A DNA stretch of 64,000 nucleotides, taken from positions 46,304-110,303 of the forward strand of contig CACXRO010000001.1 in NCBI GenBank assembly GCA_902770045.1, given 5' to 3'. Numbering within the stretch: the stretch's first letter is position 1; every line of letters begins with the position of its first letter. The position numbers were made by a program, and so were the translations under genes. Origin of the DNA: an uncultured bacterium. GTDB taxonomy: Bacteria > Verrucomicrobiota > Kiritimatiellia > RFP12 > UBA1067. The notes under the pieces are model-generated. The model saw nothing but the letters and a program-made list of their open reading frames with translations, was not told the origin of the DNA and did no database searches. Below are positions 23,781-53,278 of this stretch, piece after piece.

Positions 23781-23795
23781 AAGGGTCAGACCCTT
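23781..23795. repeat. REP-like palindrome AAGGGTCAGACCCTT
   Basis: 7-bp arms around one central base. Confidence 0.85.
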
Positions 23796-23943
23796 CTGTA
23801 TATGTTTTTACCGTATCTGCTGCCCCTGCGTTCATGCCATGCCCGGCCTCCGACGGCGCGGCGGAAACGGCGAACGGCGCTATGTGGCTTATGCGCATGG
23901 TATTGCTCGGTCTCACTGGCGCGTATTATACCATATCCGCCGC

Positions 23944-23964
23944 GATTACGGTGCGGACGAAATC
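23944..23964. repeat. 21-bp motif GATTACGGTGCGGACGAAATC, copy 1
   Basis: Identical to 42265-42285. Confidence 0.9.
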
Positions 23965-24062
23965 CAATCCCTTCATCGCATTTGCATCCATCATCCTACT
24001 TGCTATCGCATCCCTGTACTAACGCGCATAGCCAAAAACCATTGCCATTAGACACATTGTTA

Positions 24063-24635
24063 TCAAAGGACTCGTTTTAAAAATTTTATGTCTAATTTTT
24101 TATTACATGACTTAAAATGGTACACAGAAATATTCTTTTTTTCTCCATCCGCATTTATCCCAACATCATATCCAATACAATCATAAAAAGCAATATTGCG
24201 AGGCAATTGGATCGATGGGATAAAGACAAGTTTGCTTGTTATACAACCTTTACCATCAAGACTATCCAGGCAACCAACCTCATAATGTGGATACGCCCTA
24301 AAACAATTTCGTGACACATATAATGTGCCAGATTCCATATTCATAATTGCCGCCTCTATTTCAGAATCTTTTAATTGCAATTCACCATCCTCGGCAATTA
24401 CAAGCTCTCCATTACCCTCAACGAACAAATTAACCGAGAATTCCTCCACCCTGACATTATCATCTGTTGTCTCGCAACTTAAAATATATGTATCGTCATC
24501 AAAGCCGATGATAATGTCAGAATTTTTCTCGTTGATGCGGTTTACAATTTTTAAAGAGGGAAAAGAAACGTTATTGTTGACAGCACAACCGCATAAAGAA
24601 CTAAACAATGCCATTATCCATAATAATTTATTCAT
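24063..24635 (-). CDS. Low-GC lipoprotein, candidate orphan immunity protein
   Basis: MNKLLWIMALFSSLCGC lipobox; AT-rich versus flanks. Confidence 0.7.
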   Translation of the reverse strand: MNKLLWIMALFSSLCGCAVNNNVSFPSLKIVNRINEKNSDIIIGFDDDTYILSCETTDDNVRVEEFSVNLFVEGNGELVIAEDGELQLKDSEIEAAIMNMESGTLYVSRNCFRAYPHYEVGCLDSLDGKGCITSKLVFIPSIQLPRNIAFYDCIGYDVGINADGEKKNISVYHFKSCNKKLDIKFLKRVL

Positions 24636-24765
24636 ATTTTTTATTCCATTCATCTTGTTTATCAGGAATAGTTCCATGTTCTGTTTCGCTATCATACTTG
24701 TTTTGTTTATCCATAAATTGACGAGGGGGACTGTCCCCCGCGATTGTTAGAAATCCGAAAACCAT
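24628..24765 (-). pseudogene. 45-aa chimeric ORF: host-like start plus DUF922-like C-terminal fragment
   Basis: AAGGAG RBS; MVFGFLTIA-GDSP-...QNKYDSETEHG..KQDEW; stop overlaps lipoprotein ATG. Confidence 0.5.
24725..24739. repeat. REP-like palindrome GGGGGACTGTCCCCC
   Basis: 7-bp arms at the edge of the AT-rich insert. Confidence 0.88.
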
Positions 24766-24826
24766 GATTGACTCCTTTCCCTTTGCAATCGTTTGCCTAA
24801 TAGGATACCGAATTTTCCCCGCGAAA

Positions 24827-26701
24827 TCAAGCGCGAATCGACCAGCCGTAGGCGCCGATCGCGTCGGCCACGGCCGCAACGTAGTCCGCCTCCTCGTCCG
24901 TCACCTTGCCGTCCTGCGCAATCGTCTCCTTCAGCCCGGTAAGAAGCTCGCGCTTCGCAAGCGGGGGCAGATGCATGAGCGAATCGAGCGCCGCAAGAAT
25001 CTCAGTCGCATCGTCGTAGGGCTCGGGCATCGGCGGCAAAGCTGGGCCAAAGAGCGAAAGTTTCCGCCCTGCCGCCACATAGCCACCCTCGGGGTCGCCG
25101 CCAAACGACGCTACCGTTGCTATCACGCGCGCGGCGACGGGAAGAAGAGTCTTCGCCGGCACCATCTTCGGGACGCGTCCGTCCGAGAGAAGCCGACGCC
25201 TGACGGACGCCATGACCATCATCTCGAAGGAATCGTACATTCCGTCCTCCTGGACGACGCGCTCCGCCTCCTCCGCCCAGTGGCGACGCTGAGATATCGA
25301 CGCACCGTCCCGAAGCGTGTTGACGCACCTGAGCGCGAGCGTACGCCGCTCGGCCGCAGAAATCTCCCCTACCCATCCCTCCGGCACTTGGCCGCGCAGA
25401 AGCGCGATGAGCATCCCGCCGGCTTTCGCCGGACTCCGCGCTGACGCGAGCACGGCGGGCTGCACCTTCGCATCCGCGAGCGACACGTCCGCCGCCTTGA
25501 GCCCCCTCGCGCGGGAGACGCTCTTCGCGAAATTCTCGTTCGCCGCCTTGGCCATCGCGCGGCGGCGCTCCTTGACCGCATTGATGCGCAACTTCACCGA
25601 TTCGTCCGCGGCAGTCTCGCCGCGCGGAGAGAGACGGCGGATGCGCTCCTTGACCGGCGGATGGGTCTCAAAGAGGGAGTCGCCTGTCGACGCGAAGAGC
25701 ATGTGCGAGACATCGCCCTTCCACGCACCGAATGCACGGCCGCCGCCAACCACATCCGCAAGGTACGTGAACCTGAGCGCATTCGCAAGCCCCTCTGGAT
25801 TTCTGGTGAACTGCGCCGACGCGGCGTCCGCAAGGAACTCGCGCTCGCGCGATACAGCACACTGGACGAGCCGCGCGAAGAAGGTGCCGATCGATCCGAC
25901 AAGCCACAGCGCGATGCCGGTGAGGACATATATGACGAGGAGCGGCAGCGGACCGCCGCCCTTGCCCTTGCTTTTGCCGCGCGGAACCACAATGACGCAA
26001 GAGCCGTCTTCTCCGTCTCCACCAAGCAACGACAGCATGCCCTTCCCAAAACGCGAGACGGAGGAAATGCCAGCGACAAGCGCAGTGAGACGAAAGTTAA
26101 GCCGCATGTCGCCGTTCAGGATGTGGCTGAATTCGTGCGCGACAACACCCTGCAGCTCATCGCGCGTAAGCCACTCAAGCGCACCGCGAGTCACGCATAC
26201 GGCCGCAGAAGAAGGGTCTGTCCCCGCCGCAAGCGCGTTGACTCCGCCTTCTCCCTCAAGAACCCATACGGTCGGCATGTCGAGTCCGGACGCGATGGAC
26301 ATCTCCTCGCAGACATTGAGAAAACGGTCTCGCGCAAGGTCGGCTTCGGCGTCAGACGAAACCTTGCCGCGGCTCAGGCGCGTCGCGCCGATTGACTTCA
26401 TCAACATGTCGCCTGAAGAAAGTCCAAAGAACTTCGAAAGCGTCGCAATGGCGATGAGCAGGAAGGAAAAGACGAAGCAGGCAGCGCCGACTTGCGGATA
26501 TGCGCGGCAGAACGCGGCAATACCGGCCTCGGTTGCATCGCACGCCAAGTCGGCATCACCGAAATACAGCCAGACGCCCCAGCAGGCGAGCAAAAAGACA
26601 ATGCCCGTTGCCACGGCTGTCGCGATTATCGCAACAGCTGCGAGCGGGACAAGGCGGAATGTTCTGGTGCGCGCCGCCTGCTGGAGCGCGAATGGGTCCA
26701 T
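24827..26701 (-). CDS. M48 family metalloprotease (LemA-associated)
   Basis: HEFSH, SREREFLAD, THPP. Confidence 0.9.
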   Translation of the reverse strand: MDPFALQQAARTRTFRLVPLAAVAIIATAVATGIVFLLACWGVWLYFGDADLACDATEAGIAAFCRAYPQVGAACFVFSFLLIAIATLSKFFGLSSGDMLMKSIGATRLSRGKVSSDAEADLARDRFLNVCEEMSIASGLDMPTVWVLEGEGGVNALAAGTDPSSAAVCVTRGALEWLTRDELQGVVAHEFSHILNGDMRLNFRLTALVAGISSVSRFGKGMLSLLGGDGEDGSCVIVVPRGKSKGKGGGPLPLLVIYVLTGIALWLVGSIGTFFARLVQCAVSREREFLADAASAQFTRNPEGLANALRFTYLADVVGGGRAFGAWKGDVSHMLFASTGDSLFETHPPVKERIRRLSPRGETAADESVKLRINAVKERRRAMAKAANENFAKSVSRARGLKAADVSLADAKVQPAVLASARSPAKAGGMLIALLRGQVPEGWVGEISAAERRTLALRCVNTLRDGASISQRRHWAEEAERVVQEDGMYDSFEMMVMASVRRRLLSDGRVPKMVPAKTLLPVAARVIATVASFGGDPEGGYVAAGRKLSLFGPALPPMPEPYDDATEILAALDSLMHLPPLAKRELLTGLKETIAQDGKVTDEEADYVAAVADAIGAYGWSIRA

Positions 26702-26702
26702 A

Positions 26703-27305
26703 TCAGAACTTCACCTGCGGCGCCTCGCGCTGCGCGGCGGAGTCGGTCGACTCAAGGAGCGCTGCGGGCGCGAAGTTGAAGATGCCCGCGACGATCGAAG
26801 TCGGAAAAAGCTCGCGCTTCGTATTGTACTCCGTTACGGCGTCGTTGTACGCCTGGCGCGCGAAGGCGATGCGGTTCTCGGTCGAGGAAAGCTCCTCCAT
26901 GACACGCGACATCTGTCCGTCCGCCTTGAGATCGGGATAGCGCTCGACAACGACCATGAGGCGGGAGAGAAGCCCCGCGAGCCCGGATTCGGCGGCGGAG
27001 AAGGCCTTGACCGCAGACGGATCGCCCGGCGCTGCGGCGAGCGCCTTCGCGGCGCCCGCGGCCTGGTTGCGCGCCTCGATGACGGCAGTCAGCGTCTCGC
27101 GCTCGTGCTTGAGGTAGCCCTTCGCCGTCTCGACGAGGTTGGGGATGAGGTCGTAGCGGCGGCGGAGCTGCACGTCGATCTGCGCGAATGCGTTCTTGAA
27201 CCTGTTCTTGAGAACGACGAGTCCGTTGTAGAGCCCAACGATCCACGCAATGAGAACGATGGCGATAACGACAATGACCAACAGTGCAATCAGGATTCCG
27301 TACAT
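26703..27305 (-). CDS. lemA: LemA family protein
   Basis: IDVQLRRRYDLIPNLV, YPDLKA. Confidence 0.95.
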   Translation of the reverse strand: MYGILIALLVIVVIAIVLIAWIVGLYNGLVVLKNRFKNAFAQIDVQLRRRYDLIPNLVETAKGYLKHERETLTAVIEARNQAAGAAKALAAAPGDPSAVKAFSAAESGLAGLLSRLMVVVERYPDLKADGQMSRVMEELSSTENRIAFARQAYNDAVTEYNTKRELFPTSIVAGIFNFAPAALLESTDSAAQREAPQVKF

Positions 27306-27453
27306 GTTGTTCCTCCTTTTGGTTGTTGTTTTCGGTTATTATACCATTTTTGCCGCGCTCCGTGTTGGCTTTCGCGGCAGATTTTCGCCGCTCTGAAAGG
27401 TGAGCGTCGTTAAACGCGAACAAATCCGCGTGTTAAACCAAAACCGCCGCGGC

Positions 27454-27493
27454 CTTTCAACTTTTCAACCTTTCAACTTTTCAACCTTTCAAC
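27454..27493. repeat. (YTTTCAAC)x5 tandem octamer
   Basis: Five units; two more at 19205-19220. Confidence 0.9.
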
Positions 27494-27572
27494 CTCTCGG
27501 GTGCCGCGCAAGGTGCCGCGCTCAGCCGCGGCGGGCGAGGGCGGCGCGGACAGGCGCTGCAGACAGCCGGCG

Positions 27573-28901
27573 TCACTGCGGCCGCCTCGTGGACATGAGC
27601 ACCGCGTAGATGGTCGCGGTGACGCAGACGGGGGCGATGAAGATCGCGGTGACGGCCATCGCCCAGCCCGGGACGCCAAGGGGAAGGAGAATGGAGCAGA
27701 CCGTGAAGAGCGACGCGGTGTAGGCGATCTGCCCGGCCATGATGGCCTTCGGTCGTTTCGCCAGCGCGGCGAGTCCCTCCACGCGCGCTCGAACCGCGTG
27801 GATGACGGATATGAGCGAATAGATCCCGATGGCGAGGCGCGCCGTCCCGACGATGCGCGGCGGGACGTTCTGGTAGGTGCCAAAGTACCAGCCGCCGACG
27901 AGCGGAGTGGAGAACACGAGCGGCACGACGCCGAGGAGAAGTCCCGCGGCAGCTGCATACGCGAGCAGGCGCCTGTCGCCGGCGTACTCCGGCGGGAACT
28001 TGATCGCCACCGTCTGCATGCGGAGCGCGGCGAACGCCACCGGGTTCGCGACGCCGATGGTGACATAGTGGATGGCGAGCATGTCGTTGGCGTCGGCCGT
28101 CCTGCCGACGAAGGCGGCGATCACGAGCGGCGAGAGCATCAGCAGAAAGCCGCCGAGCGAAAGCGGAAGCGTGAAGCGGAACTGCTCGAGCGTGAGGCGG
28201 GGGATGCTCGGAAGCGACGGCGCGCCTTCGGACTGCGGCCGGTTGGGGAGCCGCGCGACGTATGGCCGCGCATAGAGCCAGGTGGCGACGAGCTCCATGC
28301 CGACGCCGAAGGTCAGCGCCGCGAGCCCCCACCACGGCCCGACCAGGCCCATCTGCGGAAAGGCGACGGCAAGCGCGAAGGTCACGACCAGGCGGATGAC
28401 CGTCGCATAGTTCGCCTTCGCGCTTTCGAGGTTGTTGAAGAGGACGACCATCGGGACGTTGCGGAGGAAGAAGAACCCGTTCATCACCACGCCATAGAGG
28501 AGCGTGCGCGACGCGATCTCGGCGAGCTCCGGCGTCAGCGCGAAGAGTCCCGAGAATATCCAGTCCGAGAACGGCGGCAGCGCAGCGACGCACTGGACCG
28601 CCAGGAGCGCGGACATCATCAGCGTGTTGAGGCGCCTGAAGGCGACGTAGCCCATCCAGGTCTTGGCGAAGACGAGTCCGGTGGTGATGAGCCCGCCGCC
28701 AATCGCGCCGATCATGAACATGACCATCTGACCCTGGCTGAAGGCAGTGAGCGCGTCGACGCCATGTTCGCCGTGCGTGACGATGCCGGCGACAAGCGGA
28801 TACGCGAGCGACTGCGAGAACCCCTGCAGCAGCAGCGGCACGTAGAAGCGCGTGACGCTTCCGACGCTGAACTTCGACTCTGCCGCTGCGCCTGACTGCA
28901 T
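27573..28901 (-). CDS. MATE/MOP-like membrane transporter
   Basis: ~12 TM in two halves (FYVPL / FTLPL). Confidence 0.65.
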   Translation of the reverse strand: MQSGAAAESKFSVGSVTRFYVPLLLQGFSQSLAYPLVAGIVTHGEHGVDALTAFSQGQMVMFMIGAIGGGLITTGLVFAKTWMGYVAFRRLNTLMMSALLAVQCVAALPPFSDWIFSGLFALTPELAEIASRTLLYGVVMNGFFFLRNVPMVVLFNNLESAKANYATVIRLVVTFALAVAFPQMGLVGPWWGLAALTFGVGMELVATWLYARPYVARLPNRPQSEGAPSLPSIPRLTLEQFRFTLPLSLGGFLLMLSPLVIAAFVGRTADANDMLAIHYVTIGVANPVAFAALRMQTVAIKFPPEYAGDRRLLAYAAAAGLLLGVVPLVFSTPLVGGWYFGTYQNVPPRIVGTARLAIGIYSLISVIHAVRARVEGLAALAKRPKAIMAGQIAYTASLFTVCSILLPLGVPGWAMAVTAIFIAPVCVTATIYAVLMSTRRPQ

Positions 28902-28909
28902 ATTGCCGT

Positions 28910-30118
28910 TCACCTTAGATTGTCGTCTCTTCGGCCACGCAGCGCGGCGCCGGCACCGTGCGCATAACGACACCCCAGGATTGCGCCAAGCGCGACGCAG
29001 GCGGCAATCGGGCCAAGACCAAACGAAAAATAATCGCAGGCGATGCTTCTAAGAAATACCAAAGACAGCATGGCCAGCCCAACTATCCACGCATAAATGC
29101 TCAGAAGGCCGACCTTGTCCCTGATGCGCAATTCGGGCCACGCAGAAGACGCATACGCCAGATAGCCAAGTGCGATCGGGGAGATGCCGACAAGCCGCCC
29201 CGAAGCGAGTCCAAGCCCCGCGAAGGCCACCTGCGCGATGACCGAGGCCGCCGCAAACGAGAGGAAAAGCCCGATGAATTTGCGATGTCCGGCCCGTCGC
29301 TCAACTACAGCCAACGGCAGGAAAAGCAGAAAGGCGAAAATCAAGGCAACCCTTCCGGACATCTGCACAAACGGGAACGAGAGGGCCGTCAGCGGAGAAG
29401 AGACGTCGAATCCGCACTTTTCGGCCATTGCCTCTGTCAGCACCCAGAAGTCGCGATAGTACACCCTTTCCCTGACTCCAACGTCTGTTATTTCCGTCGT
29501 AATGTCGTGGCAGCTGTAAAACACGCAGGCATGGACAATTGGCAAGGCGAGCGTCAGCACAATGGTAAAGATCGGCGACTCTGGCTTGACCATCCGCCAA
29601 AGAGTCGGCGCGCCGATGACGATCCGCGCGACATCGCGCAGAATGTCGCCAAGGTCGTAATCACCCGGCGAGACTTCTTCCGGCAGCGAGTCAAGCACCG
29701 CGGCGGCGTAGCGTTCGCGCGCCTCGGGCGTCGCGCGCGCGAGAATCTGGCGCATCGTCGCCTCGCCATGCTTCGGCGGCGGCGGCGGCGCAAGCACCTC
29801 GTACTCTCCCTTGTCGCACCAGACCGAAAGGCAGCGTCCGCAGACGTCGATCTCCAGTTTGTCCGCCCCGTCGCCGACCTTCATCAGGGTCATCTGTCCG
29901 GCGCACCCGGGGCACAGGCATCCGATGTGCTCAGCGGTGCGGGCGGCGCGCATCAGCGCGGCAATGCTTTGGGCGTCCAGCGATTCACGGAGCACAGGGA
30001 GCGTCACGGCCATGCCGCCGCACGACGGACAGCGGAAGCACACCTTGCCAGTCGGCGTCGCGCCGCGCACAAGTTCGCGCCCGCACCTCGGGCAGAAGCC
30101 TATGTCCTTTTCGTCCAT
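28910..30118 (-). CDS. Zn-ribbon plus rhomboid-like membrane protein
   Basis: Four CxxC, CLSVWCDKGE; ERRAG..F, VGISP. Confidence 0.7.
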   Translation of the reverse strand: MDEKDIGFCPRCGRELVRGATPTGKVCFRCPSCGGMAVTLPVLRESLDAQSIAALMRAARTAEHIGCLCPGCAGQMTLMKVGDGADKLEIDVCGRCLSVWCDKGEYEVLAPPPPPKHGEATMRQILARATPEARERYAAAVLDSLPEEVSPGDYDLGDILRDVARIVIGAPTLWRMVKPESPIFTIVLTLALPIVHACVFYSCHDITTEITDVGVRERVYYRDFWVLTEAMAEKCGFDVSSPLTALSFPFVQMSGRVALIFAFLLFLPLAVVERRAGHRKFIGLFLSFAAASVIAQVAFAGLGLASGRLVGISPIALGYLAYASSAWPELRIRDKVGLLSIYAWIVGLAMLSLVFLRSIACDYFSFGLGPIAACVALGAILGCRYAHGAGAALRGRRDDNLR

Positions 30119-30121
30119 ATA

Positions 30122-30604
30122 TTACCCACCATGGACCGCCGTCCAGAACTGGTAGGCAATGAATCCGCAGCAGGCGACCTTCAGCGCCACGCCGCACAAA
30201 TATCCGAGAAATGCGCCGAACGCACCCTTGAGCGACCGCCCGAACGGCTTGCCGGAAATGAGTTCTCCTGCAAGCGCGCCGAGAAACGGCCCCAGGACGA
30301 CGCCGAGCGGGAGGAAGAAGAGACCGACGATCGTGCCGATGAAACAACCGAGCATCCCGACGCGCGAGCAGTTGAACTTCTTCGCCCCCAGCGTCGGCAC
30401 GATCCAGTCAAGCACCAGCACCGCCGCCGTGACCGCGCCGGCAACGACAAGCGCAGCGACGCCGGGCGACGAGTGGTCACCGCGCGCCAGCGCGAGGAAA
30501 AGCGCCGCGTACGCGATCGGCGGGCCGGGCAGCACCGGCAGAAAGCAGCCAACGGCTCCAATCGCAATCAGAATCCAGCCAATCCATTCGTAGACGATGT
30601 CCAT
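30122..30604 (-). CDS. DUF456 family membrane protein
   Basis: PVLPGPP, LGPFLGALAGE. Confidence 0.85.
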   Translation of the reverse strand: MDIVYEWIGWILIAIGAVGCFLPVLPGPPIAYAALFLALARGDHSSPGVAALVVAGAVTAAVLVLDWIVPTLGAKKFNCSRVGMLGCFIGTIVGLFFLPLGVVLGPFLGALAGELISGKPFGRSLKGAFGAFLGYLCGVALKVACCGFIAYQFWTAVHGG

Positions 30605-31482: not shown

Positions 31483-31513
31483 GGCTGTACTTTGCCTCCG
31501 TTGACGGGTGTGA

Positions 31514-31825: not shown

Positions 31826-31845
31826 CTTTCTGCTCCCTTCTGTGT

Positions 31846-33030: not shown

Positions 33031-33039
33031 AGGTTGCGT

Positions 33040-33086
33040 ATTATACCAAATATCGGCACACCGCTGACGCGGCAATTTGGTATAAT
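33040..33086. promoter_or_regulatory. Divergent pair of TGGTATAAT extended -10 promoters
   Basis: ATTATACCA 33040-33048 (minus) and TGGTATAAT 33078-33086 (plus). Confidence 0.8.
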
Positions 33087-33103
33087 ATGCGACGGAGGCG
33101 GAC

Positions 33104-34465: not shown

Positions 34466-34470
34466 TCAGG

Positions 34471-35646: not shown

Positions 35647-35649
35647 CCC

Positions 35650-42176: not shown

Positions 42177-42264
42177 ATCTGGGCTCCTCTTGGGCATATG
42201 GGATTGATTTTTGGCGGAATTATACCATATTCCGCCCCGCCTGTGTGGCGAGTATCTGTTGTGA

Positions 42265-42758
42265 GATTACGGTGCGGACGAAATCAAACTGCCGCGCAAG
42301 GTGCCGCGTGGGTCTGTCCCCGCGCCCCTTATGTAGCTCCGACAATGCGGTTGTCGGCGCAATACGAGCGCACCTGACGGGGAGTTATTCCCCATCTGGC
42401 TGCAATCTCATCTATCGTCAGAAAATCCATCAACAAGCCTCCTTCGTGTTCTGCGGAAGTTTATCTCCCTCAATAGGAAGCATATCCAATGGCAAACCGC
42501 ACCCTGTTTTGCCAATATAAACTTCCGGCACGCCCATATATTCCGTTTTTCACCTCCATTTGAAAGCTTTGATGCGTATTATACCACATTTTCGGTCCAA
42601 ACTGCCGCGCAAACTGCCGCGCAGACTGCCGCGGTGTCTGTCCCCGGCGCCGTTTCCGAATCAAGTGGTAGATTCCATTTTTTGGTGGACATCCGCCTAA
42701 AAATGGAATGACCGGCTCTCGAGCTTCTCCTCGCAAACTGCCGCGCAATGTGCCACGG
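42265..42758. repeat. Repeat-delimited junction: 21-bp motif copy 2, AAACTGCCGCGC-type 12-mer clusters, degenerate GGGTCTGTCCCC palindromes
   Basis: Modules at 42265-42321, 42599-42645, 42735-42758. Confidence 0.85.
42329..42430 (-). pseudogene. 33-aa truncated excisionase-like HTH
   Basis: AAGGAGG RBS; MDFLTIDEIAARWGITPRQVRSYCADNRIVGAT*. Confidence 0.65.
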
Positions 42759-42800
42759 ACAGGACGGCCTGAATTTGCAATTTGCAAAAAATGCACATTG

Positions 42801-44858: not shown

Positions 44859-44859
44859 G

Positions 44860-47718
44860 TCACTTCACCTCGAACACTTTCATCACCTCGTCTCCGAAGT
44901 GGTTGATGACCTTTACCGCAATCTGCCCGGACCTCGGACGCGCGAACGGACGGGACACCGTCTTCGCGACCGTCTCCCATTCCTCCTCGTCTATGTCGTT
45001 CTTCAGAAACACCTTAAACGCCTTGTACACGTCGTCTCGCCCTGGGAAATAAACCTGCCTCGCGATGAACGACTCGCCCGAATAGTCCGTGTCGAGCATC
45101 CAGCAGTCGATGGCGTCGGCGTTGTCGCTACGCACCTCATCCCGTTTCGGGTCATAGACATCGACACCTTTGATAGCCACCGTGTATAGGTCGTCCTCAG
45201 TGTGCGTGACATCGATATCCGGTTCGCCGAAGATGACGAACGGATTGCCGCTACCAGTCTCCTTGAGGTCGGTCGACATGTGCAAGTCGCTGTTCATCCG
45301 CGCCTGAAGCACCTTGAGCCGCCCCATCGCAGAATCGCTCCCCTCCTCCACATACGCCTCGAAGTTGAACGCACAGTAGACAAGCACGTCAAATCCGCAC
45401 TCCAGCGCCTCGCGCGACGCGTTCTTCATGTCGAGCCGCGTCACCGAACCAAACTCAGGGCCGAACGCTACTGCATACCTCTTCGACTTCCCGTTTTCCG
45501 AAGCCGCGCCCCAAGCCTCGGCAACGATGTATTTCCCGTTCGCCCACGGCTCCACGCTCGTGAACTCAATACGGTCGCCCTTCCGTGCCTGCTTGATTCC
45601 GTTCTTTCGGAGCGTCCGTATCATGCGCGTGATGTAGTTCGCGCCGTTGCCATAGTCGATGTCCTTGGCAAGCTTCATCGCAGGATCGGAGAGCGTCCCG
45701 TCCGCCTCGCTCACGAGGGCGCGCACCGGCGCGACGGACTCCACTGTGAACGGTCCCGCCACACGCACTCGCTTCTTGTCCTCATACGGCTTGTCGTACA
45801 GATATTCCATTTCCGCTGTTCGCGCGATAGAGTCGTCTATCTCCTTCTGTCGCGCGCGCTTCAGTTTCATGAACTCTGCATGAAGCTTCTTTGCCTCGTC
45901 CGACCAAGCCTCCAATGCCTCAAACGGCACCTCCCATTCCTGAAACTCCGGCCGCGCCGTTTTCTCCGCCAACTCCTTCCTCAGCCTATCGCTCTCCGTC
46001 TCGTACTTCTCCCAGATTGTGTCAATCTCCGAGTTATTGGCAATCGCCTTCAGCGTGATGTGCGGGACACGCTCATAGACAAATCCCTGCGAGATCTTGT
46101 TGAATGTCGGACGTTGAATCACCCTTCCAGTAATCTCCATCTCCTTCTTCAACCCCGCCTCCGAGTCAGCAAGCAGATAGTACGGATACTTCGACGTCAT
46201 AATTCGCCGCCTTGCAAGCGCAATCGCCACACGCGACGTGTCGATTGTAATCCAACGACGCCCCCACTGCTCGGCCACATACGCAGTTGTTCCCGAACCG
46301 CACGTTGGGTCAAGAACGAGATCGCCAGGATCGGTACACATCAGCATGCAACGCTGAATAACCAAATCAGACGTCTGACATACATATCTCTTTTCTGAAA
46401 ACGTGCCTATTATAGTGTCTCCCCAAACATGATCAATTGGCATGAGTGTGAAGTCTTCGGAAAACAACTTGTATGATAAAACCTTTCCAAGTGCGACAAC
46501 TCTATCCGCCCTAACCAATCGTTCCATTCCAATAGGCCAACTTGCTGCCCAGTGTCGCCCTGGCGAAGGCAAGAATTCTTTACCAGCGAATGAAAATGGA
46601 GTCATAATATCTGAAGAACCTTGCCTTGAAATATCCGCGGCACGAAAGAGTTTCAATCCATCAAATGACCCAGACTTCAGCTCGGCTTTACTAAGCCTTT
46701 TCCATGATCCTCTAACTTCTACACAATTATACGTCCCCCCGTCCGTTTTTTCTTTTCGAGCGACAAGTGGTTTCCTATACTTCATCATTGGTCTGTTTTT
46801 AGCATACCAAACGAGGAAATCATGTGTTACTCCCAAGAAATTTGCTTTTATTGAAGCCGTCTTGGCAAACGTAATCAGGCAAACATAATTTTCCTCGCCA
46901 AACACTTCATCCATAAGTGCACGCACCCTATGGACATTATCATCACTAATTTGCACAAACACGCTTCCTGTCTCACACAGCAAATCCCTCGCCACAGTCA
47001 ATCTATCGCGCAGATATCCGAGATAGGAATGTACGCCGTCATGCCAAGTATCGCGAAACGCTTTTACCATTTCCGGCTCGCGTGTGATGTCCTCCTTCTT
47101 GCCGTCCTTCACGTTCGTTGATTTCGTGCTGGGTTGCCAGTTGGAATTGAACTTGATTCCATATGGCGGATCGAAGTAAATCATCTGCACCTTGCCGCGC
47201 AACCGCTCGTTCTCGGCAAGCGAAGCCATCACCTGAAGCGAGTCGCCGAGGATCATGCGGTTCTTCCACCCCTCCTCATGGTTGTAGAAGCAGGGCTTGG
47301 CGTTCGGGTCAAAATCCTCGGAAAGCTCGCCAAGCGTCATCTGCGCATCGGCGGCGTCACGGCGAATCGCCGACTGCCGCTTCATCTCCTCGATGAGCAT
47401 GCGCGGGAATATCTTCTCCTGCTGGTAGATGTAGGGCGCGGCTGTTTCCAGCTCATTGACGTCGTTCGGTTTCTTGCCACGCCAGATGTACTGCGGATCA
47501 AGGTCGGGATCTCGCGCAGCAAATTCTTCGCCAAGCGGTGGCGGTGGAACGGCTCCATCCAAGGGATACTTTGCCGTTGGCGTAGGTGCACCAACAAGCT
47601 CTTCTGGATTGATGCCGCTGTACTCTCCTGTCAGGATCGTGGTGCGGGTGTACTCGCGGTGCATCTCGTAGTCTTCTACCGGAGTAGGCCCCGTCGATTT
47701 CTTCTTACCCTTAGCCAT
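44860..47718 (-). CDS. mod: Type III R-M adenine methyltransferase
   Basis: YFDPPY followed by LDPTCGSGTT; coupled to res. Confidence 0.9.
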   Translation of the reverse strand: MAKGKKKSTGPTPVEDYEMHREYTRTTILTGEYSGINPEELVGAPTPTAKYPLDGAVPPPPLGEEFAARDPDLDPQYIWRGKKPNDVNELETAAPYIYQQEKIFPRMLIEEMKRQSAIRRDAADAQMTLGELSEDFDPNAKPCFYNHEEGWKNRMILGDSLQVMASLAENERLRGKVQMIYFDPPYGIKFNSNWQPSTKSTNVKDGKKEDITREPEMVKAFRDTWHDGVHSYLGYLRDRLTVARDLLCETGSVFVQISDDNVHRVRALMDEVFGEENYVCLITFAKTASIKANFLGVTHDFLVWYAKNRPMMKYRKPLVARKEKTDGGTYNCVEVRGSWKRLSKAELKSGSFDGLKLFRAADISRQGSSDIMTPFSFAGKEFLPSPGRHWAASWPIGMERLVRADRVVALGKVLSYKLFSEDFTLMPIDHVWGDTIIGTFSEKRYVCQTSDLVIQRCMLMCTDPGDLVLDPTCGSGTTAYVAEQWGRRWITIDTSRVAIALARRRIMTSKYPYYLLADSEAGLKKEMEITGRVIQRPTFNKISQGFVYERVPHITLKAIANNSEIDTIWEKYETESDRLRKELAEKTARPEFQEWEVPFEALEAWSDEAKKLHAEFMKLKRARQKEIDDSIARTAEMEYLYDKPYEDKKRVRVAGPFTVESVAPVRALVSEADGTLSDPAMKLAKDIDYGNGANYITRMIRTLRKNGIKQARKGDRIEFTSVEPWANGKYIVAEAWGAASENGKSKRYAVAFGPEFGSVTRLDMKNASREALECGFDVLVYCAFNFEAYVEEGSDSAMGRLKVLQARMNSDLHMSTDLKETGSGNPFVIFGEPDIDVTHTEDDLYTVAIKGVDVYDPKRDEVRSDNADAIDCWMLDTDYSGESFIARQVYFPGRDDVYKAFKVFLKNDIDEEEWETVAKTVSRPFARPRSGQIAVKVINHFGDEVMKVFEVK

Positions 47719-50700
47719 TGTCTTTCTCTCCCTTGGTAAATTCATCGATAGCCGACGCATACGCGGTGCGGCAGTTCACTAGCAATTGCTCATCATTAGC
47801 AAAACCGTCTAATTCGAAGTGATCCCTGTTCAGCTCGATAAACGCCCAGCGCCCGAAGTTCTTGAGTTTGTTCACGCCGGGAATCCAGTAAGTTTCCATC
47901 GTCGACTTCTTGGCATTCGCGTCAATATACCGATAGCCCTTCACCTCAATGACAAGATGAAGAGGGTCGTCTAATCCTTTTCCATCGTCGAGCAGCACAA
48001 TGAAATCAGGCAGATACTCACGTCGTTCGCTACCGATCACATACGGAACCTCGAAGTCGAGGCCGTAGTTCTTCACGTATGCAATTGTCTGCGGATGTTC
48101 CTCGAGCACTCTGCAGAGAATCTCTTCCCACGACGAATCGCAGATTGCGTAGTTGACATGTGATTTCCCAGGGCTCGTCTCGTAGGCGATTTTCTTTGTG
48201 CGCGAAATACGGAAATTGACAGAAGAAGTGGAGCCTGTCGGCAAGAAGTCGTCCAGCAAGACCGATATCGACGCCTTGTCCTCCGCAACTGCCTTGCGCA
48301 CAATCGCGTCATTGATCTTGTTGCAGGCCTCGTCCTTTAAGTTCGGCGATTCTACTACAACATCCTCAGGTACGCCTATGCATTTAAGATAGCCCTTGTC
48401 GATCCAATCAGTGAAAAGCGTCCGCACTTGTCCAAACAGACGAACGCGATCCAATGCAGTGTAGCCAGAATAGAACTTCTCGACGAAACGCTTCGCAAGC
48501 TGCATGATGATGTCAGACCTCCGACGGCCGACGCCTTCGTATGTCAGCACCTGCTTTTCGCCGATTGCGCTAGCGTTCAGCACTTTGGTCGGGCCAACTT
48601 CGTTAACCGTGATGCGCAGTTCGGAACTGTCCTTGAAGTCCGCCTCAAGTCGCACATCAGGTGAATTCGTCTCCAGATAGTATCCAAGAACGCGAGGGAA
48701 GCGTATCGTAAGCATATCGCGCTCTGGCTTTACGGCATGGACATGAATGACGTCAGGGGGCTCAATCGGAGGCGGATTCTTGATACCAGAAGCAAAGTGG
48801 AACGGTATGCCGAAGATATCCGCATACTCAGGGGCGTAGAGTCCCGTGTCTTTGCTCAACTCGTAGTTGAGGCGACGAAGTCCGCGCCCAACCACCTGTT
48901 CGCAAAGAAGTTGCGTGCCAAACGCCCTTACACCAAGAATATGCGTGACTGTGTTCGCATCCCAGCCCTCGGTAAGCATCGAGACTGAGACGACGCAACG
49001 AATCGATTCGCCCAGTTTGCCCGGCTTGCCGACAGTGTTCATCACCTCTCGCAGTATGTCTTCATCACTGAGATTTCGCGCTTTCTCCATTTCGCCACGA
49101 TTTCGCAGCTCGCGCTTGAACACCTCCAGCTCTTCGGCGGCAGCTTTTTTGAAATCATCGGCAAGCGCCTCCCCGGACTCCAGCTGCGCGGAGTCGATGA
49201 GCAGAGTGTGCGGACGAGCCAATGGCTGGTCGCAGTCGTCATAATTGTCGAAGAGATCGCATGCGCCCTTCACATGCTGCACATTACCTTCGGCATCGGC
49301 AATGTCGAAACCAGCGATGAACTGGTATACTATTTTCGAGATCGCGGTGTTCTGGCAAACGATTATGAAGCACGGTGGCGCCTTGCAGTTGGCCGCCTGC
49401 CACTTCTCGAAAACTTCTTTGTAGCCTCCGTAAAGAACATTGATCGCCGTTCGCAGCAAATCCGGTATCTTGCGTGGATCAAAAGAATCGGCCTTGCTTT
49501 TGCCGCGGATGGAACAGAACGATTTGCCTTCCTTCGTATCCTTCAAATGCTTCCAAAGTTCGCGGTACTTCGGCAGTTCGGACGCTGTGACGACGTTATC
49601 GTCTATCGGAATGCGCGGCAATTTTACAATGCCGCACTCAAGTGCGTCCATAAGGGAAAAGTCGCTGACCGTCCAGGGGAACAGCGTTCCCTCCTTGTAG
49701 CCACTGCCGCTCAGGAAGAACGGCGTGGCCGAAAGGTCGACTACTCGCGCTTTCGGCATCTTGGCACGAATCGCTTCAAGGCCGGATATCCAAAGCCGCG
49801 CCGTCTCCTCGTTCTTCTTGGCCTCGTCCCGCCCGTCGGCATCGAGATCTTCCTCTTCCTCACCGATGGCATCAACAGGTCGATGTCGGTAGCAGTGATG
49901 CGCTTCGTCGTTGATCATGAGAATATTCTTGAGCCCCGCCGCATCGCCGAGAACGCGCGAAACCATCTGGCCTTCTGTCTCGACCATCTGCGGACCATCT
50001 CCGCCATCAGGCCCCACTAGCATTGCTTTTGTCCCAGAAGAAAGCTCCATCGTGCTTTTCCGCTGAAACTGTTGGAAGTTCGTAATGATAATGCGCGCCG
50101 TCTCCATCAGCGGCAGCAAGTCTTTTGGTACGAGATTACGATGCTGGTAGTACGATTCGTCATCATTCGGCAGCAGTACGCGCAGACGATCCTTGATTGT
50201 GATGCCCGGTGTTGTGATTAGGAATCCATTGGTAAACTTACCGCTATTTAAACCATGTCGAGCGGCATTTATTGTCTGCCACGCAATGATCATGGCCATG
50301 ACGGTTGTCTTTCCTGCGCCAGTGGCCAGTTTAAGTGCAATGCGGTATAGTTCCTTATCCGCATCATCGTTTGCTAGAGCGAGCTGTTCAAGGAACTGCC
50401 TGCCGCTCGAGGATTCATTTGCCACCTCTGTAAGCCATATCAAAGTCTCGACTGCCTCCACCTGACAGAAGAATGGACGGATATCAGGGAAATTGTCGCC
50501 GTTTCGCCAGTGCTTCAGGAGCCGTGCAGTCTCAGCTGTTACACCCCATCTTTCGGGTGGGAGTCTACGCCATTCATCAACCTTCGCGCGAATGGAATTA
50601 ATTAACTCGTTGGTAGAATATGTGGAATAGTCAACACCATTTGCCGTTTGAGAAAAAAGATCGCCTTGGTATTGCCCTCCCTTGACACGTCGATTAATGG

Positions 50701-50899
50701 CAATAGGCGACTTTAAGCTGGATGGACGACGGAACTCGTTTATCTTCTGAGTTGGGAGGTTGTCGGCATCCATCTCCCAATGCCGCCCTGGATATTCATA
50801 GGGAGAATTGAGAATTGGATTCAGTGCAAAATCCCTTGTATTAGGAACCGTCTCTTCCACATCCGTCCCTTCCTTCCGCGCCTGTTCCGGAGAGAGCAT
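47711..50899 (-). CDS. res: Type III restriction endonuclease/helicase (start uncertain)
   Basis: ATGAGKT, DEAHH, SAT, EQVVGRGLR, PD..EVK nuclease. Confidence 0.9.
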   Translation of the reverse strand: MLSPEQARKEGTDVEETVPNTRDFALNPILNSPYEYPGRHWEMDADNLPTQKINEFRRPSSLKSPIAINRRVKGGQYQGDLFSQTANGVDYSTYSTNELINSIRAKVDEWRRLPPERWGVTAETARLLKHWRNGDNFPDIRPFFCQVEAVETLIWLTEVANESSSGRQFLEQLALANDDADKELYRIALKLATGAGKTTVMAMIIAWQTINAARHGLNSGKFTNGFLITTPGITIKDRLRVLLPNDDESYYQHRNLVPKDLLPLMETARIIITNFQQFQRKSTMELSSGTKAMLVGPDGGDGPQMVETEGQMVSRVLGDAAGLKNILMINDEAHHCYRHRPVDAIGEEEEDLDADGRDEAKKNEETARLWISGLEAIRAKMPKARVVDLSATPFFLSGSGYKEGTLFPWTVSDFSLMDALECGIVKLPRIPIDDNVVTASELPKYRELWKHLKDTKEGKSFCSIRGKSKADSFDPRKIPDLLRTAINVLYGGYKEVFEKWQAANCKAPPCFIIVCQNTAISKIVYQFIAGFDIADAEGNVQHVKGACDLFDNYDDCDQPLARPHTLLIDSAQLESGEALADDFKKAAAEELEVFKRELRNRGEMEKARNLSDEDILREVMNTVGKPGKLGESIRCVVSVSMLTEGWDANTVTHILGVRAFGTQLLCEQVVGRGLRRLNYELSKDTGLYAPEYADIFGIPFHFASGIKNPPPIEPPDVIHVHAVKPERDMLTIRFPRVLGYYLETNSPDVRLEADFKDSSELRITVNEVGPTKVLNASAIGEKQVLTYEGVGRRRSDIIMQLAKRFVEKFYSGYTALDRVRLFGQVRTLFTDWIDKGYLKCIGVPEDVVVESPNLKDEACNKINDAIVRKAVAEDKASISVLLDDFLPTGSTSSVNFRISRTKKIAYETSPGKSHVNYAICDSSWEEILCRVLEEHPQTIAYVKNYGLDFEVPYVIGSERREYLPDFIVLLDDGKGLDDPLHLVIEVKGYRYIDANAKKSTMETYWIPGVNKLKNFGRWAFIELNRDHFELDGFANDEQLLVNCRTAYASAIDEFTKGEKDNG

Positions 50900-50924
50900 G
50901 CCACCGGCGCGGCAGAAGAAGAGC

Positions 50925-50998
50925 GGCGCACTCCCAAGATTCAGTTTCGTTGAGGCACCGGAAAGAGCCTTGAATGGAACCGACTATGAAAGTGCACC
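50925..50998 (-). other. Rod-like RNA hairpin upstream of res
   Basis: GGTGCACTTTCA pairs with TGGGAGTGCGCC, plus inner stems. Confidence 0.5.
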
Positions 50999-51079
50999 GC
51001 GTGGAATTATTCCACACGTGCGCACAGCCGTATTTCGCCCCACTCAGTGAAAATTTCCGGTTTTCAACGAAGCTACTTT

Positions 51080-51192
51080 ACGTACTATTGCGTACGTCGG
51101 CGGATGTTGCCACCCGCCCTTGGCGATCTCCGCACTTGCGTGTCGCCGTTCCTGGGCCAGCCTGCACCCAGGAATGTGTCAAAGAGCGATTT
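51080..51192 (-). ncRNA. Candidate structured RNA/leader: boxA-like motif plus four hairpins
   Basis: CGCTCTTTGACA then stems 51149-51174, 51122-51147, 51099-51118, 51080-51097. Confidence 0.6.
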
Positions 51193-51198
51193 GCGGAT

Positions 51199-51227
51199 AT
51201 TATACTATAATGCCCTGGCGTGGTCAA
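51199..51227 (-). promoter_or_regulatory. Sigma-70 promoter TTGACC-N17-TATAAT
   Basis: Near-consensus hexamers with 17-bp spacing. Confidence 0.75.
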
Positions 51228-51257
51228 TGGGGCTAGGGATAATGCCATTCTGCCGCG
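51227..51257. repeat. 31-bp direct repeat, left of AbiE
   Basis: 26/31 identical to 53131-53161. Confidence 0.75.
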
Positions 51258-51426
51258 GACTGGCGGGCGTAGAGGCGTTTGAAGGTGACGAGCGCCGGCG
51301 AATCAGCTAGCGCGCGCGGGACGCGCTTCAGCACTAGCGCCCGCGCATCCCATAGCCGCCAAGTCCATGGTCACAAACTGTGATCTTGAACTGGTCTGGT
51401 CAGAGAATACGCCTTGCCGAAATCCA

Positions 51427-52332
51427 TCATAAGAGTATCCTTTCCAACGCCAATGCATTATCTGCGAATTTCCTTGCATCCCTTTGACGCAGTGTTTCCA
51501 GGTTCATGCGTTTCCAAATGACGGCCGGAAGCTTCTCCAGCCCGGGTATGCCAAAAACGTCAGCGTCCACCTCAAGCGCGGTGAACGCCACAAGCCGTTC
51601 TCGGTCTTCTCGCGTAAGCGAGGCGTTGATGTCCGCGACAAGCCGCCGAAAAGTCGCAACATGCTCGTCGTACTCAAACGGAACGTCACTCATGCCGGCA
51701 AACTGCGAGGCAAACGTTTCAGACTGGTCGAGCATGTTCGGCGCGAGCATCTCGTGCAGCGGACGGTTGTGGCCAAGCGCCAATGCGATAAATCCGCCTT
51801 TCACGTCATCGACGGTTCCGCCCCCGCCGAAGAACTGAGCCACGTCGAAGAGGTCACGTGGATGCTGCCTGTCCAGCGCCGCGCAGAACTTGCCGCCATA
51901 CAGCTCCTCACGGGAAAGAACTGCCATTTCCGCCGAAGCCCCAACGATTTCGGACATCTTGGGGGCAAGTTCAAGTTGACGGGTGGGATAGACCGTGCCG
52001 CGCAAGATGAAATTAGGTTCAACCTTGATTTCTGCTCCATTCGCAAAACATGTCATCTTGCGCGATGCATCCGTCCCGTGCATACGAACGAGGAATCCGC
52101 GTGCCCTCAGCCTCTCGGCAATGCGATCCAGCGCGGCGTTGATCTCGCGTATCGCGGTATCGCGGCCGGACACGGGGAGAAAAGTCAAGTCAATATCTAC
52201 GGAAAGACGTGGCAGGTCAAGCTCAAAGAGATTGATGGCCGTTCCGCCTTTTATCGCAAAGCAGCTTTCCTCCGCTATCGACGGAATGCATCGCACGACC
52301 AACTCGGACTGGCGAAGATAGCGCCCTTCCAT
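51427..52332 (-). CDS. abiEii: AbiEii nucleotidyltransferase toxin (type IV TA)
   Basis: KGGTAINL..RLSVDIDL, K..AALDRQHPRDLFD. Confidence 0.92.
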   Translation of the reverse strand: MEGRYLRQSELVVRCIPSIAEESCFAIKGGTAINLFELDLPRLSVDIDLTFLPVSGRDTAIREINAALDRIAERLRARGFLVRMHGTDASRKMTCFANGAEIKVEPNFILRGTVYPTRQLELAPKMSEIVGASAEMAVLSREELYGGKFCAALDRQHPRDLFDVAQFFGGGGTVDDVKGGFIALALGHNRPLHEMLAPNMLDQSETFASQFAGMSDVPFEYDEHVATFRRLVADINASLTREDRERLVAFTALEVDADVFGIPGLEKLPAVIWKRMNLETLRQRDARKFADNALALERILL

Positions 52333-53084
52333 CAATATTCCCTCCATGGCTTGACAACGACGTTGTATTTCGGCTGGAACTCCCCGTCTTTGTCGATTAC
52401 ACGACATCCTGAGCCAAGATCTATGCCCGAAAGGTCAACCCTCTTCGTCCATCGATGACCAATGTCGTCGGCAAGTAGCAGAAAGACGCGCTTAGCCTTG
52501 ACAGAACCGCACTTCGTCAACAGTTCAGAGACGAGTTTAGGGCGCAATGTATCCGCAAATTCCATCAGCTGGTATAGCTCTCCAAGCGCGACCTTCTGCG
52601 GCACCTCCGCCGCAAGTTCCAAGAACGCTCGTTCCGGCGACGAAACCGCGCACACCGCCTCGCGATGTTCAACACCCGTTTCGTCGGGGAATAGCGAAGT
52701 GCGTTTGCAGACGAATCGGCCGGCATACGCGACTGAAAACCATTTCGGCAGACGGACACCCCGCCTGAGGTATATCTCAGCTGGCAATCCCCCAATCGGA
52801 ACATACTGCATAATGCCGCGCCGGGCCAACGCAGTCTTTCCCCCGAGATGAAGCGGCAACCCAAGCTGCTCGACGAGCGCGGCGAGCGCGGCGTCAATCG
52901 ACGGGACATCGCCGCTTTCGCAAAATGCTCCATTACCCAGCGAACGCAGCCAATTCGACTTGCGGTATTTCAGCATGCTTTGGTAGCTCACACCATGTCG
53001 CCGCAGATAAACTGCCGTCACTACGCCTTTTTGATGGACAAGGCGCATGATGTTCTTTATTTTCGTGTCGTTTTCTGAACTCAT
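52332..53084 (-). CDS. abiEi: AbiEi antitoxin (type IV TA)
   Basis: HLGGKTAL, SSPERAFLE, CGSVKAKR, IDLGSG; overlaps toxin start. Confidence 0.9.
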   Translation of the reverse strand: MSSENDTKIKNIMRLVHQKGVVTAVYLRRHGVSYQSMLKYRKSNWLRSLGNGAFCESGDVPSIDAALAALVEQLGLPLHLGGKTALARRGIMQYVPIGGLPAEIYLRRGVRLPKWFSVAYAGRFVCKRTSLFPDETGVEHREAVCAVSSPERAFLELAAEVPQKVALGELYQLMEFADTLRPKLVSELLTKCGSVKAKRVFLLLADDIGHRWTKRVDLSGIDLGSGCRVIDKDGEFQPKYNVVVKPWREY

Positions 53085-53130
53085 GGTTGATGTATTGTAT
53101 CAAAAACAAAACGGGACTGCAACCACCAGC

Positions 53131-53161
53131 ATGGGGCTTGGCATCATGCAATTCTGTCGCG
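53131..53161. repeat. 31-bp direct repeat, right of AbiE
   Basis: 26/31 identical to 51227-51257. Confidence 0.75.
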
Positions 53162-53265
53162 CTAGGCGCCGCGGGACTGCGAGCCAATTTCCCAATTATC
53201 GGCAATTTTGGAATTCTGCCGAGGTTTAAGTGATTTAGCGAATAGTGCGAATAAAATAATCACAT

Positions 53266-53278
53266 GGGGACAGTCCCC
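53266..53278. repeat. REP-like palindrome GGGGACAGTCCCC
   Basis: 6-bp arms at the right edge of the island. Confidence 0.88.

Follow-up and report, generated by a model that had tools for sequence, protein, structure and literature searches.

Insertion sequences of the IS200/IS605 type encode the TnpA Y1 transposase, carry subterminal hairpins and move by single-strand peel-and-paste, and integrons have attC sites of 57-141 nucleotides (nt). Short palindromes with transposases of their own have also been described. Nunvar (2010, PMC2817692), Bertels and Rainey (2011, PMC3116915) and Bertels (2017, PMC5581495) deal with repetitive extragenic palindromic (REP) elements and REP doublet-forming hairpins (REPINs), which go with REP-associated tyrosine transposases (RAYTs) in units called REPtrons. 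Passages of Di Nocera et al. (2013, PMC3733652) describe TIRtrons, in which RAYT-like "TIRYT" genes are flanked by terminal inverted repeats (TIRs) sharing GGGGWSAS that also form moderately abundant dispersed families; the same passages mention a Verrucomicrobia species rich in GTAG repeats. Here, we compare with these systems the short palindromes found in a 64,000-nt stretch ("the window") of contig CACXRO010000001.1 (assembly GCA_902770045.1), from an uncultured cattle-gut bacterium of the Kiritimatiellia.

The original prediction, made from the letters of the window alone, was that five palindromes of one family form the edges of two compositionally foreign segments and act as recombination points, at which defence genes are captured by an enzyme encoded elsewhere. 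Our analysis leads to a different reading, to which we give a probability of roughly 0.8: the elements are probably the cores of two separate short dispersed hairpin-repeat families, each flanking its own clade of RAYT/TIRYT-like Y1 transposases in this cattle-gut Kiritimatiellia genus. Selfish or domesticated DNA, of a kind already known, would then explain the presence of palindromes at the edges of both foreign islands, and two pairs of hairpin repeat and Y1 transposase would be added for the Kiritimatiellia, an uncultured gut and rumen group. Among the literature matches listed, none joined RAYT or REPIN with Kiritimatiellia.

Two Families of Hairpin Repeats

The window lies on contig C1 of a 2.27-Mb genome (87 contigs, 65% GC, 85% complete). 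All five predicted elements were recovered at their positions, and by context and cognate genes they fall into two unrelated repeat families rather than one. Family g is represented by the hairpin GGGTCAGACCC (23783-23793). It is part of a plus-strand module of 46 nt (23778..23823), composed of an A-tract, the hairpin and two direct repeats of the CTGTATATG type, which equals the terminal inverted repeat of a RAYT-like clade and folds with energies of -8.2 and -10.3 kcal/mol on the two strands. Family B is defined as GGGGAC(A/T)GTCCCC or the asymmetric form GGGGACAGACCCC. Its palindrome GGGGGACTGTCCCCC, at 24725..24739 between the M48 gene and a low-GC open reading frame (ORF), folds with -8.4 kcal/mol (z -3.65) and is not embedded in a larger repeat. 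An asymmetric copy, GGGTCTGTCCCC (42310-42321), sits in a 36-nt filler at 42293..42328. At 42598..42645, three 12-nt (C)AAACTGCCGCG repeats are followed by a degenerate copy, GTCTGTCCCC; this element (42633-42645, GGTGTCTGTCCCC) does not fit the pattern under which it had been listed. Finally, GGGGACAGTCCCC was mapped to 53266..53278, 28 nt past the stop codon of the EamA-family gene, with no larger repeat around it.

The pattern GGGWCWGWCCC occurs at five sites in the window against 0.12 expected, and none of 100 shuffles reached five; this count includes a chance match within the M48 gene (26214..26224), a sixth element that is absent from the list of the original prediction. The latter encodes the residues AAGTDPS, which are conserved in orthologues, and is therefore ordinary coding sequence.

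In the whole genome, we counted 83 copies of the 11-mer and 48 of the 13-mer, compared with about 12 and about 1.3 by our own base-composition estimate and with 0-1 per genome for a reversed-pattern control. Family B is biased towards extragenic DNA: 30 of the 48 13-mers lie outside called genes, though called genes (our own rough calls) cover ~92% of the genome. Inside called coding sequence, 36 of the 83 11-mers were found. Copies often stand in local tandem arrays (clusters on C1, C4, C10, C11, C17, C37, C43 and C54), with flanks that are identical within an array and different between arrays. The motif is patchy among related genomes, as is typical of mobile repeats. It is present in 2-88 copies in 21 of 24 genus relatives (range within the genus, 0-88), and outside the genus in 5 of 16 genomes, one of which has 74 copies and its congener 1. 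For family g, 14 copies were detected in the genome itself and 13 in the close relative G031 (at most 2 mismatches over a 22-mer).

Several arrays touch coding sequence. An apparent coding region at position 180-460 of locus L068 (G013:C178) contains five family B copies, of which three keep a 21-nt period; they likely form an in-frame array. Three copies at G000:C43:8351-8500 are spaced in multiples of three bases in the N-terminal region of a predicted membrane protein, where they read GSVP, GSVP and GTVP; the G031 alignment stops within this array.

The family g module is also crossed by the 3' part (…AYTVKxYTEGSDPF) of a putative multi-copy small ORF with a signal-peptide-like start (MKPHAKSALALALA...) and its own conserved promoter module, copies of which were seen at G000:C44:21460-21795, on C24, C52, C21 and C17, and at 23778-23935 of the window. 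That family g is simply the 3' end of this small protein was considered but not kept as the principal reading: conservation is at the level of nucleotides, with third codon positions included, across copies whose upstream parts are unrelated, and the frame runs past the module without a common stop.

Family B and Its Y1 Transposase-Like Genes

The Pfam family PF01797 (Y1_Tnp) matches three places in the genome. The ORF matched at the end of contig C37 is preceded by three family B copies and contains three more (read GDSP); alignment with relatives shows that the latter make up a 56-residue in-frame insert. The association was then quantified over 52 RAYT-like loci in 22 genomes. At least one exact 13-mer is present at 35 of them, and the 82 copies counted compare with 2.0 expected from the density of each genome. 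Ten of the 52 loci had been chosen after the motif positions were known; the other 42 came from the protein hit list alone, and 28 of these carry at least one exact 13-mer. In public genome contigs, whose loci partly overlap the 22-genome set and are not independent of it, the motif stands at 38 of 51 loci with at least 39% identity to the query versus 2 of 29 more distant ones.

The layout of the copies is fixed. They are found 140-280 nt upstream of the gene in one orientation (ACAGA) and ~45 nt past the stop codon in the inverse one (TCTGT), as at L096, L103, L104 and many public loci, and a further copy lies inside the gene at +605 to +670, as the codons G(S/T)VPE. Out of 112 copies, 48 are upstream, 23 at +600-699 and 17 at +800-999. 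The Y1 gene is thus flanked by the repeat in inverted copies, as in REPtrons. The proteins themselves score 31-41.5 bits with Pfam Y1_Tnp (cut-off 23), the NCBIfam model REP_Tyr_transpos is the best match for all five proteins tested, with 38-68 bits (cut-off 80), and the HUH histidines are invariant in 7/7 aligned sequences.

Family g, Its Cognate Gene and Small Derivatives

For family g, the cognate gene was found in a relative. In G012, a 386-aa RAYT-like gene lies between inverted 46-nt copies, placed 48 nt past the stop and 34 nt before the start, and G033 has an internally deleted derivative of 163 aa between the same repeats, 573 nt apart. Doublets without any gene also exist, for example at G000:C37:13161/13395 (both arms). 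The association of short palindromes with Y1/RAYT-like transposases, which the original prediction had mentioned, therefore holds for both families, and its search for motif-flanked Y1_Tnp genes was positive for both.

The window copy of family g belongs to a dispersed repeat resembling a miniature inverted-repeat transposable element (MITE). This copy, ~190 nt long (23778..23970), consists of one family g arm, an internal part and a minus-strand extended -10 promoter (TGGTATAAT in reverse complement, 23925-23933), and lacks the second arm. By BLAST, more than 15 full or partial copies with 78-90% identity are present in the genome, e.g., on C74, C60, C37 and C26. A fragment of the same repeat, the GATTACGGTGCGGACGAAATC module, lies at 42261..42299 and has ~35 or more genome copies.

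At G000:C44:20311-21579, two low-GC ORFs of 163 and 173 aa, both membrane-protein-like, stand between two inverted family g copies whose hairpins point inward. The ORF pair is split by a family B palindrome, and the whole unit is absent at the same place in G031.

Taken together, the anatomy of these loci suggests a simple scheme. The Y1 transposases of the two clades would recognise the hairpins as single-stranded DNA and would have spread solo copies, tandem arrays and small derivatives. The copies would settle where they do little harm, in spacers between genes or, in frame, in tolerant protein loops. The low-GC islands would be ordinary accessory/defence hotspots bordered by long mosaic-repeat spacers, and palindromes would stand at their edges because hairpins live in such spacers, not because they direct capture.

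The Two Islands in Close Relatives

Insert ends were mapped against two relatives usable for this purpose, G031 and G043 (each at 95-98% identity); beyond these, the neighbours of L15, EamA, ClpB and M48 are not syntenic, and insert ends are not definable there. The two low-GC stretches are real, with a GC content of 0.41 at 24001-25000 and 0.47-0.59 at 42001-53000, the rest being at ~0.65-0.70. That the palindromes are the edges of these foreign segments was borne out in part only, once the ends of the variable segments were mapped. Both islands are hypervariable accessory/defence hotspots, for which three near-identical genomes have three contents.

At island 1, an esterase/M15 gene (21584-23716, profile scan) is followed by the family g module and by a low-GC ORF (24063..24695, minus strand) of 210 aa, with a lipoprotein-like signal-peptide/Cys start, no family match and no paralogue in the genome. 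The genes for the M48 peptidase (24827-26701) and LemA (26703-27305), both on the minus strand and of native GC, come next. To the right of LemA, trmD and then a ClpB-like gene precede the GH20 gene (40602-42197). G031 lacks a 3.8-kb segment, 23710-27540, that holds the repeat copy, the low-GC ORF, M48 and LemA (breakpoints 23709/27541), and has in their place 852 bp from a radical-SAM-type gene; only the first codons of this gene are retained in the window. G043 diverges leftwards from 27572. With these ends, the 24725 palindrome is internal to the segment and not an edge; the left end is 74 nt from the 23783 hairpin, and at the right end there is a promoter module but no palindrome. In five more distant relatives examined, no palindrome follows M48 (0/5) and the low-GC ORF is absent beside it (5/5).

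The cargo of island 2 is on the minus strand and comprises a UvrD-like helicase (42801-44858; Pfam, and GajB-like UvrD by PADLOC), a Type III methyltransferase (44860-47760; Pfam, and PADLOC MTase_III with 1005 bits) and a Res-like helicase/nuclease (47711-50899; Pfam, and a weak PADLOC REase_III match), together with the AbiEii toxin (51427-52407) and AbiEi antitoxin (52332-53084), both matched by Pfam and PADLOC. The EamA-family gene (53306-54187, minus strand) follows, and a ribosomal protein cluster lies beyond it in the window. Where the window has Type III restriction and AbiE, the closest relatives have a Type I system or Fic/VapBC-like cassettes.

The zone 42163-42802, the left junction of island 2, is made of hairpin repeats and 12-nt CTGCCGCG repeats and contains several independent structural breakpoints. 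The G031 alignment breaks exactly at 42261, the start of the GATTACGGTGCGGACGAAATC module, and G031 has on this side of the island a putative extra VapBC-like pair (read from ORFs) and the Fic gene. As predicted, a helix-turn-helix (HTH) ORF of 33 codons (42329..42430, minus strand) stops 7 nt from the 42310 element. It is what remains of the 5' part of a 305-aa HTH-Fic gene, truncated here and intact in G043 (Pfam Fic and HTH_17), and the 36-nt filler with the 42310 copy stands in for ~880 bp, including the Fic domain, present in both G043 and G031. Further to the right, G031 diverges directly after GTCTGTCCCC at 42645, and G043 at a CTGCCGCGCAA unit near 42748, beyond which it has Type I HsdR and a YgjP-like gene, not the window cargo.

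On the right side, the leader at 50866-51452 is common to G031 and the window, and the two part at the start codon of the Res gene, a point with no palindrome. G031 lacks 51453-52327 (AbiEii) and is again common with the window at 52328-57000, at 98% identity. The 53266 palindrome is included in this shared DNA, while the cargo to its left differs. Insert ends in relatives thus disagree with the original prediction at island 1 and at 53266, and agree in part at the left of island 2, where breaks fall in or beside repeats.

The leader itself, of which ~330 nt with its own promoter stand upstream of the Type III Res gene, has 91% identity in G031, there before a different gene, and parts of it are found again, several times over, in other relatives (a single G013 contig has three such places). 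It may act as a regulatory leader common to restriction/defence operons. The AbiEii/AbiEi pair (51233-53149) was found with 99% identity over 1.9 kb in G006, another species of the genus whose core genes are at ~82%; this difference points to a recent horizontal transfer.

Alternative forms of island 2 were also sought in metagenomes. The exact 30-base stretch to the right of the 53266 palindrome has no match in JGI metagenome contigs, and these contigs therefore gave no alternative left contexts. Assembled contigs of four other cattle-gut runs contain the joints 42308>42604, 42621>51303 and 42633>42289; joints of this kind, matched at 90% likeness in DNA full of repeats, frequently stem from repeats or from other organisms and are weak hints only. 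Two Logan-contig joints of run X2 (42737>53154 and 40561>54030) were rejected as island-free forms, the shorter side being 27 letters at 90% likeness on repeat units, and bins without cover in runs X14-X16 were left out of account.

Differences from G031 extend to other parts of the window. The G031 DNA that matches window positions 1-1995 is 94 nt from the match to 34582 onwards on one contig, and the intervening 32.6 kb of the window are on two other G031 contigs, a large rearrangement between genomes that are 96-98% identical. Three gene-sized segments of native GC are absent from G031 at their places, namely 19182-21583 (781-aa ORF), 28877-30128 (402-aa zinc-ribbon protein) and 33068-34456 (Fe-ADH_2); none has a palindrome at its ends.

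Do the Palindromes Direct Gene Capture?

A rival explanation, that of the original prediction, is that the palindromes are crossover or attachment points where an enzyme encoded elsewhere, such as a Y1 transposase, inserts or exchanges accessory cassettes. The breaks within the left junction zone of island 2 and the contig joints mentioned above would fit this explanation, the latter with the reservation already given. Against it, the five elements are divided between two families that are unrelated and have different cognate genes. Out of 11 regions where the window breaks against G031, only 2 are within 100 nt of a palindrome, and most of the other 9 lie just outside a TGGTATAAT promoter module.

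A census of breakpoints against G031 covered the window and six further stretches picked for many motif spacers (175 kb, 61% aligned), with spacers defined by our own rough gene calls. Among the 17 palindrome-bearing spacers, 8 coincide with a breakpoint, 7 lie inside absent segments and 2 are conserved; the corresponding numbers for the 45 other spacers of at least 50 nt are 18, 14 and 13. The predicted enrichment of breakpoints at palindromes was thus not observed (8/17 vs. 18/45; Fisher p=0.41). The predicted enrichment at GC shifts was evaluated with the window's own spacers left out and with 280 spacers of at least 150 nt as controls; a first version of this test was significant but included the four window spacers behind the hypothesis, and was replaced by the rerun. 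For family B (n=23), the median flank GC difference is 0.058 versus 0.039 in controls (p=0.13), and a low-GC flank is present in 10/23 versus 110/280 spacers (p=0.43). The prediction stood for family g only, whose spacers (n=7, the window again left out) are flanked by DNA of lower GC (p about 0.01).

Other contigs offer cases on both sides. A 13.5-kb low-GC island (G000:C17:63948-77504; GC 0.35-0.60), absent from G031, occupies a divergent promoter spacer and has a three-copy family B cluster 47 nt from its own right end; the terminal repeat of ~110 nt that holds these three copies is duplicated inside the island at 73150-73250. However, the empty site in G031 is a spacer of ~60 nt without a palindrome. 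In addition, the inverted family g copies on C44, with the family B copy between the two genes, bracket a low-GC segment of 1.2 kb, and 11 of the 83 copies are within 300 nt of a contig end, compared with 2.3% of the sequence. On C6, both genomes keep a palindrome, and 10 nt away from it they differ in the presence of a native-GC gene of 666 aa (7952-9957). G031 lacks this gene from the ribosome-binding site to the last codon, and a three-codon ORF is left.

The comparison with integron cassettes, which the original prediction had drawn, did not hold. As it had noted, the window has no integrase: there are four PF00589 (tyrosine recombinase) matches in the genome and none on contig C1, and the 48 ORFs scanned from 19 to 56 kb include no integrase. 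Unlike integron cassettes, each unit has its own TGGTATAAT-type promoter. With palindromes scattered over the genome, many of them coding, copies in DNA conserved with G031 and no excess of breakpoints, we regard palindrome-directed capture of defence genes as improbable.

Regulatory Signals and Other Spacer Modules

The elements are not explained by a known RNA or by a tRNA attachment site, since Rfam (gathering thresholds) gave no family anywhere in the window and ARAGORN no tRNA. The spacers of this genome are mosaics in which the two hairpins are combined with AAACTGCCGCG and 12-nt CTGCCGCG repeats, CTTTCAAC arrays, TGGTATAAT promoters and the GATTACGGTGCGGACGAAATC module. Beside many palindrome copies stands ATTATACCA, which on the opposite strand reads TGGTATAAT, an extended -10 promoter with 298 occurrences in the genome versus 4 for the reversed control. 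Similarly, AAACTGCCGCG occurs 72 times genome-wide versus 1 for its reversed control.

In the window, AAACTGCCGCG is seen as 12-nt tandem repeats at 42598-42633, and it often takes this form directly upstream of TGGTATAAT promoters. Tandem arrays of the 8-nt CTTTCAAC stand in many spacers, including 27453-27498 in the window. The latter array is part of a mosaic promoter module on the minus strand (27338..27540), with minus-strand TGGTATAAT and GGTGCCGCGCAA repeats, of which a 110-nt part has more than 10 copies in the genome. A link between AAACTGCCGCG and the palindromes was considered and rejected; ACTGCCGCG lies within 100 nt of only 12 of the 83 palindromes, and the two are therefore mostly separate modules.

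The elements might be mainly host regulatory signals, either bidirectional terminators/insulators or docking sites for DNA-binding proteins, their proximity to transposases being secondary. The A-tract, GC hairpin and T-tract of family g have the shape of a bidirectional intrinsic terminator, but no T-run follows the family B copies. Copies lie between same-direction genes in 24/29 family B and 7/9 family g spacers; this tandem orientation is, however, the commonest among all spacers anyway (275/364). The copies at 53266 and C6:9968 are 28 and 8 nt past stop codons, and REPs are presented as terminators and mRNA stabilisers in passages of PMC3733652. Against a mainly regulatory role, 0-88 copies within one genus are unfit for a conserved regulon, copies are found in frame inside proteins, and Y1 transposase loci have a 40-fold excess of copies in a fixed inverted arrangement. 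We consider it unlikely that regulation is the main role of the elements, while noting that regulatory and transposase-linked roles are not exclusive.

Finally, the hairpin repeats and the 12-nt CTGCCGCG repeats could be recombination-prone junction modules at which integrase-free accessory/defence cassettes that each bring a promoter module and a terminator-like end of their own are exchanged among rumen Kiritimatiellia strains, which if true would amount to a hairpin-guided, single-strand cassette exchange system; we find this very doubtful, and a role of either repeat in illegitimate recombination keeps a small probability because the left zone of island 2 is so rich in independent breaks within repeat modules.

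Weight of the Evidence

Several observations count against two repeat families with transposases of their own. That the repeats move and that the proteins are active is read from anatomy and distribution, and no transposition or cleavage event was seen. The cognate gene of family g was not found in the genome that holds the window, which is incomplete as stated above. The proteins score below the curated cut-off of 80 for REP_Tyr_transpos, and an insertion of ~50-60 residues between the HUH and Tyr regions splits the profile match in two. The repeat and the protein also part company in some genomes: G002 has 36 motif copies and no match to the C37 protein, and G026 has 31 protein matches and 1 motif copy.

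The conserved core of family B is only 13 nt, with a stem of 5-6 bp and flanks that vary between clusters, and the 53266 hairpin is weak (-4.2 kcal/mol, z -1.2), no better than shuffles. The 48 copies, and the 2-88 of genus relatives, are below the numbers of classical REP families (>100 per genome). A conserved GTAG tag is lacking: with a limit of 8 nt, GTAG accompanies 3 of the 19 asymmetric copies and none of the 54 strand views of symmetric ones. Two results of the capture tests also belong here, namely the lower-GC flanks of family g spacers and the lean of palindrome spacers towards variable DNA (15/17 vs. 32/45, p=0.14).

The unusual traits of the two pairs of hairpin repeat and Y1 transposase are a 13-nt core, a codon copy in the transposase gene, in-frame protein arrays and an internally deleted gene between intact repeats. 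The two hypervariable hotspots could in turn serve as test beds for island turnover without an integrase.

Comparison with Known Systems

Like integrons, the present locus has a row of small accessory/defence units of differing content, with imperfect palindromes separating the units and conserved flanks around the row. The locus differs in the lack of an integrase on the contig, in its 13-nt palindromes dispersed genome-wide and in genes, and in unit boundaries that, in relatives, lie mostly away from palindromes.

The IS200/IS605 elements share the catalytic family of the proteins described here (Pfam Y1_Tnp above cut-off) and have hairpins near both ends of the gene unit. However, the NCBIfam IS200 model gives E values of 1e-3 to 1e-6 versus 1e-9 to 1e-19 for the RAYT model, the proteins are 270-390 aa long versus ~130-150, and solo hairpins here far outnumber the genes.

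The in-frame copies recall the Rickettsia palindromic elements and intragenic REPs of which passages of PMC3733652 speak, since such copies are tolerated in proteins here too (the 56-residue insert in C37 with three GDSP, and the 21-nt arrays of G013). The units are much shorter here, and the link to a Y1 gene is clear.

With REPtrons, the shared traits are these: short extragenic palindromes are over-represented in spacers, patchy among relatives, inverted around a Y1 gene and present as doublets or arrays, and the best NCBIfam match is the RAYT model. The differences are that there are 48 copies and not hundreds, that the core is 13 nt versus 20-40 nt, and that the GTAG/CGTC tag is lacking. 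In addition, several genomes have more than one copy of the gene (up to 15-31 matches), unlike classical RAYTs, which are single-copy, and the proteins score below the family cut-off.

TIRtrons, as presented in the passages of Di Nocera et al. (PMC3733652), are the closest printed description. The comparison made here is with this printed description. The published hosts named there are mainly Acidobacteria, Stenotrophomonas and others, and the host here is a member of the Kiritimatiellia. The core of family g, GGGTCAGA, does not fit GGGGWSAS. Compared with the same passages, the conserved unit here is ~13 nt, one copy lies in the gene as codons, and the protein has an insertion of ~50-60 residues and a C-terminal extension. 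In both cases, however, a Y1/HUH transposase-like gene stands between inverted repeats at fixed distances, the same repeats are also dispersed, in dimers or clusters, and the family B core, which begins GGGGACAG, fits the GGGGWSAS shared by the TIRs.

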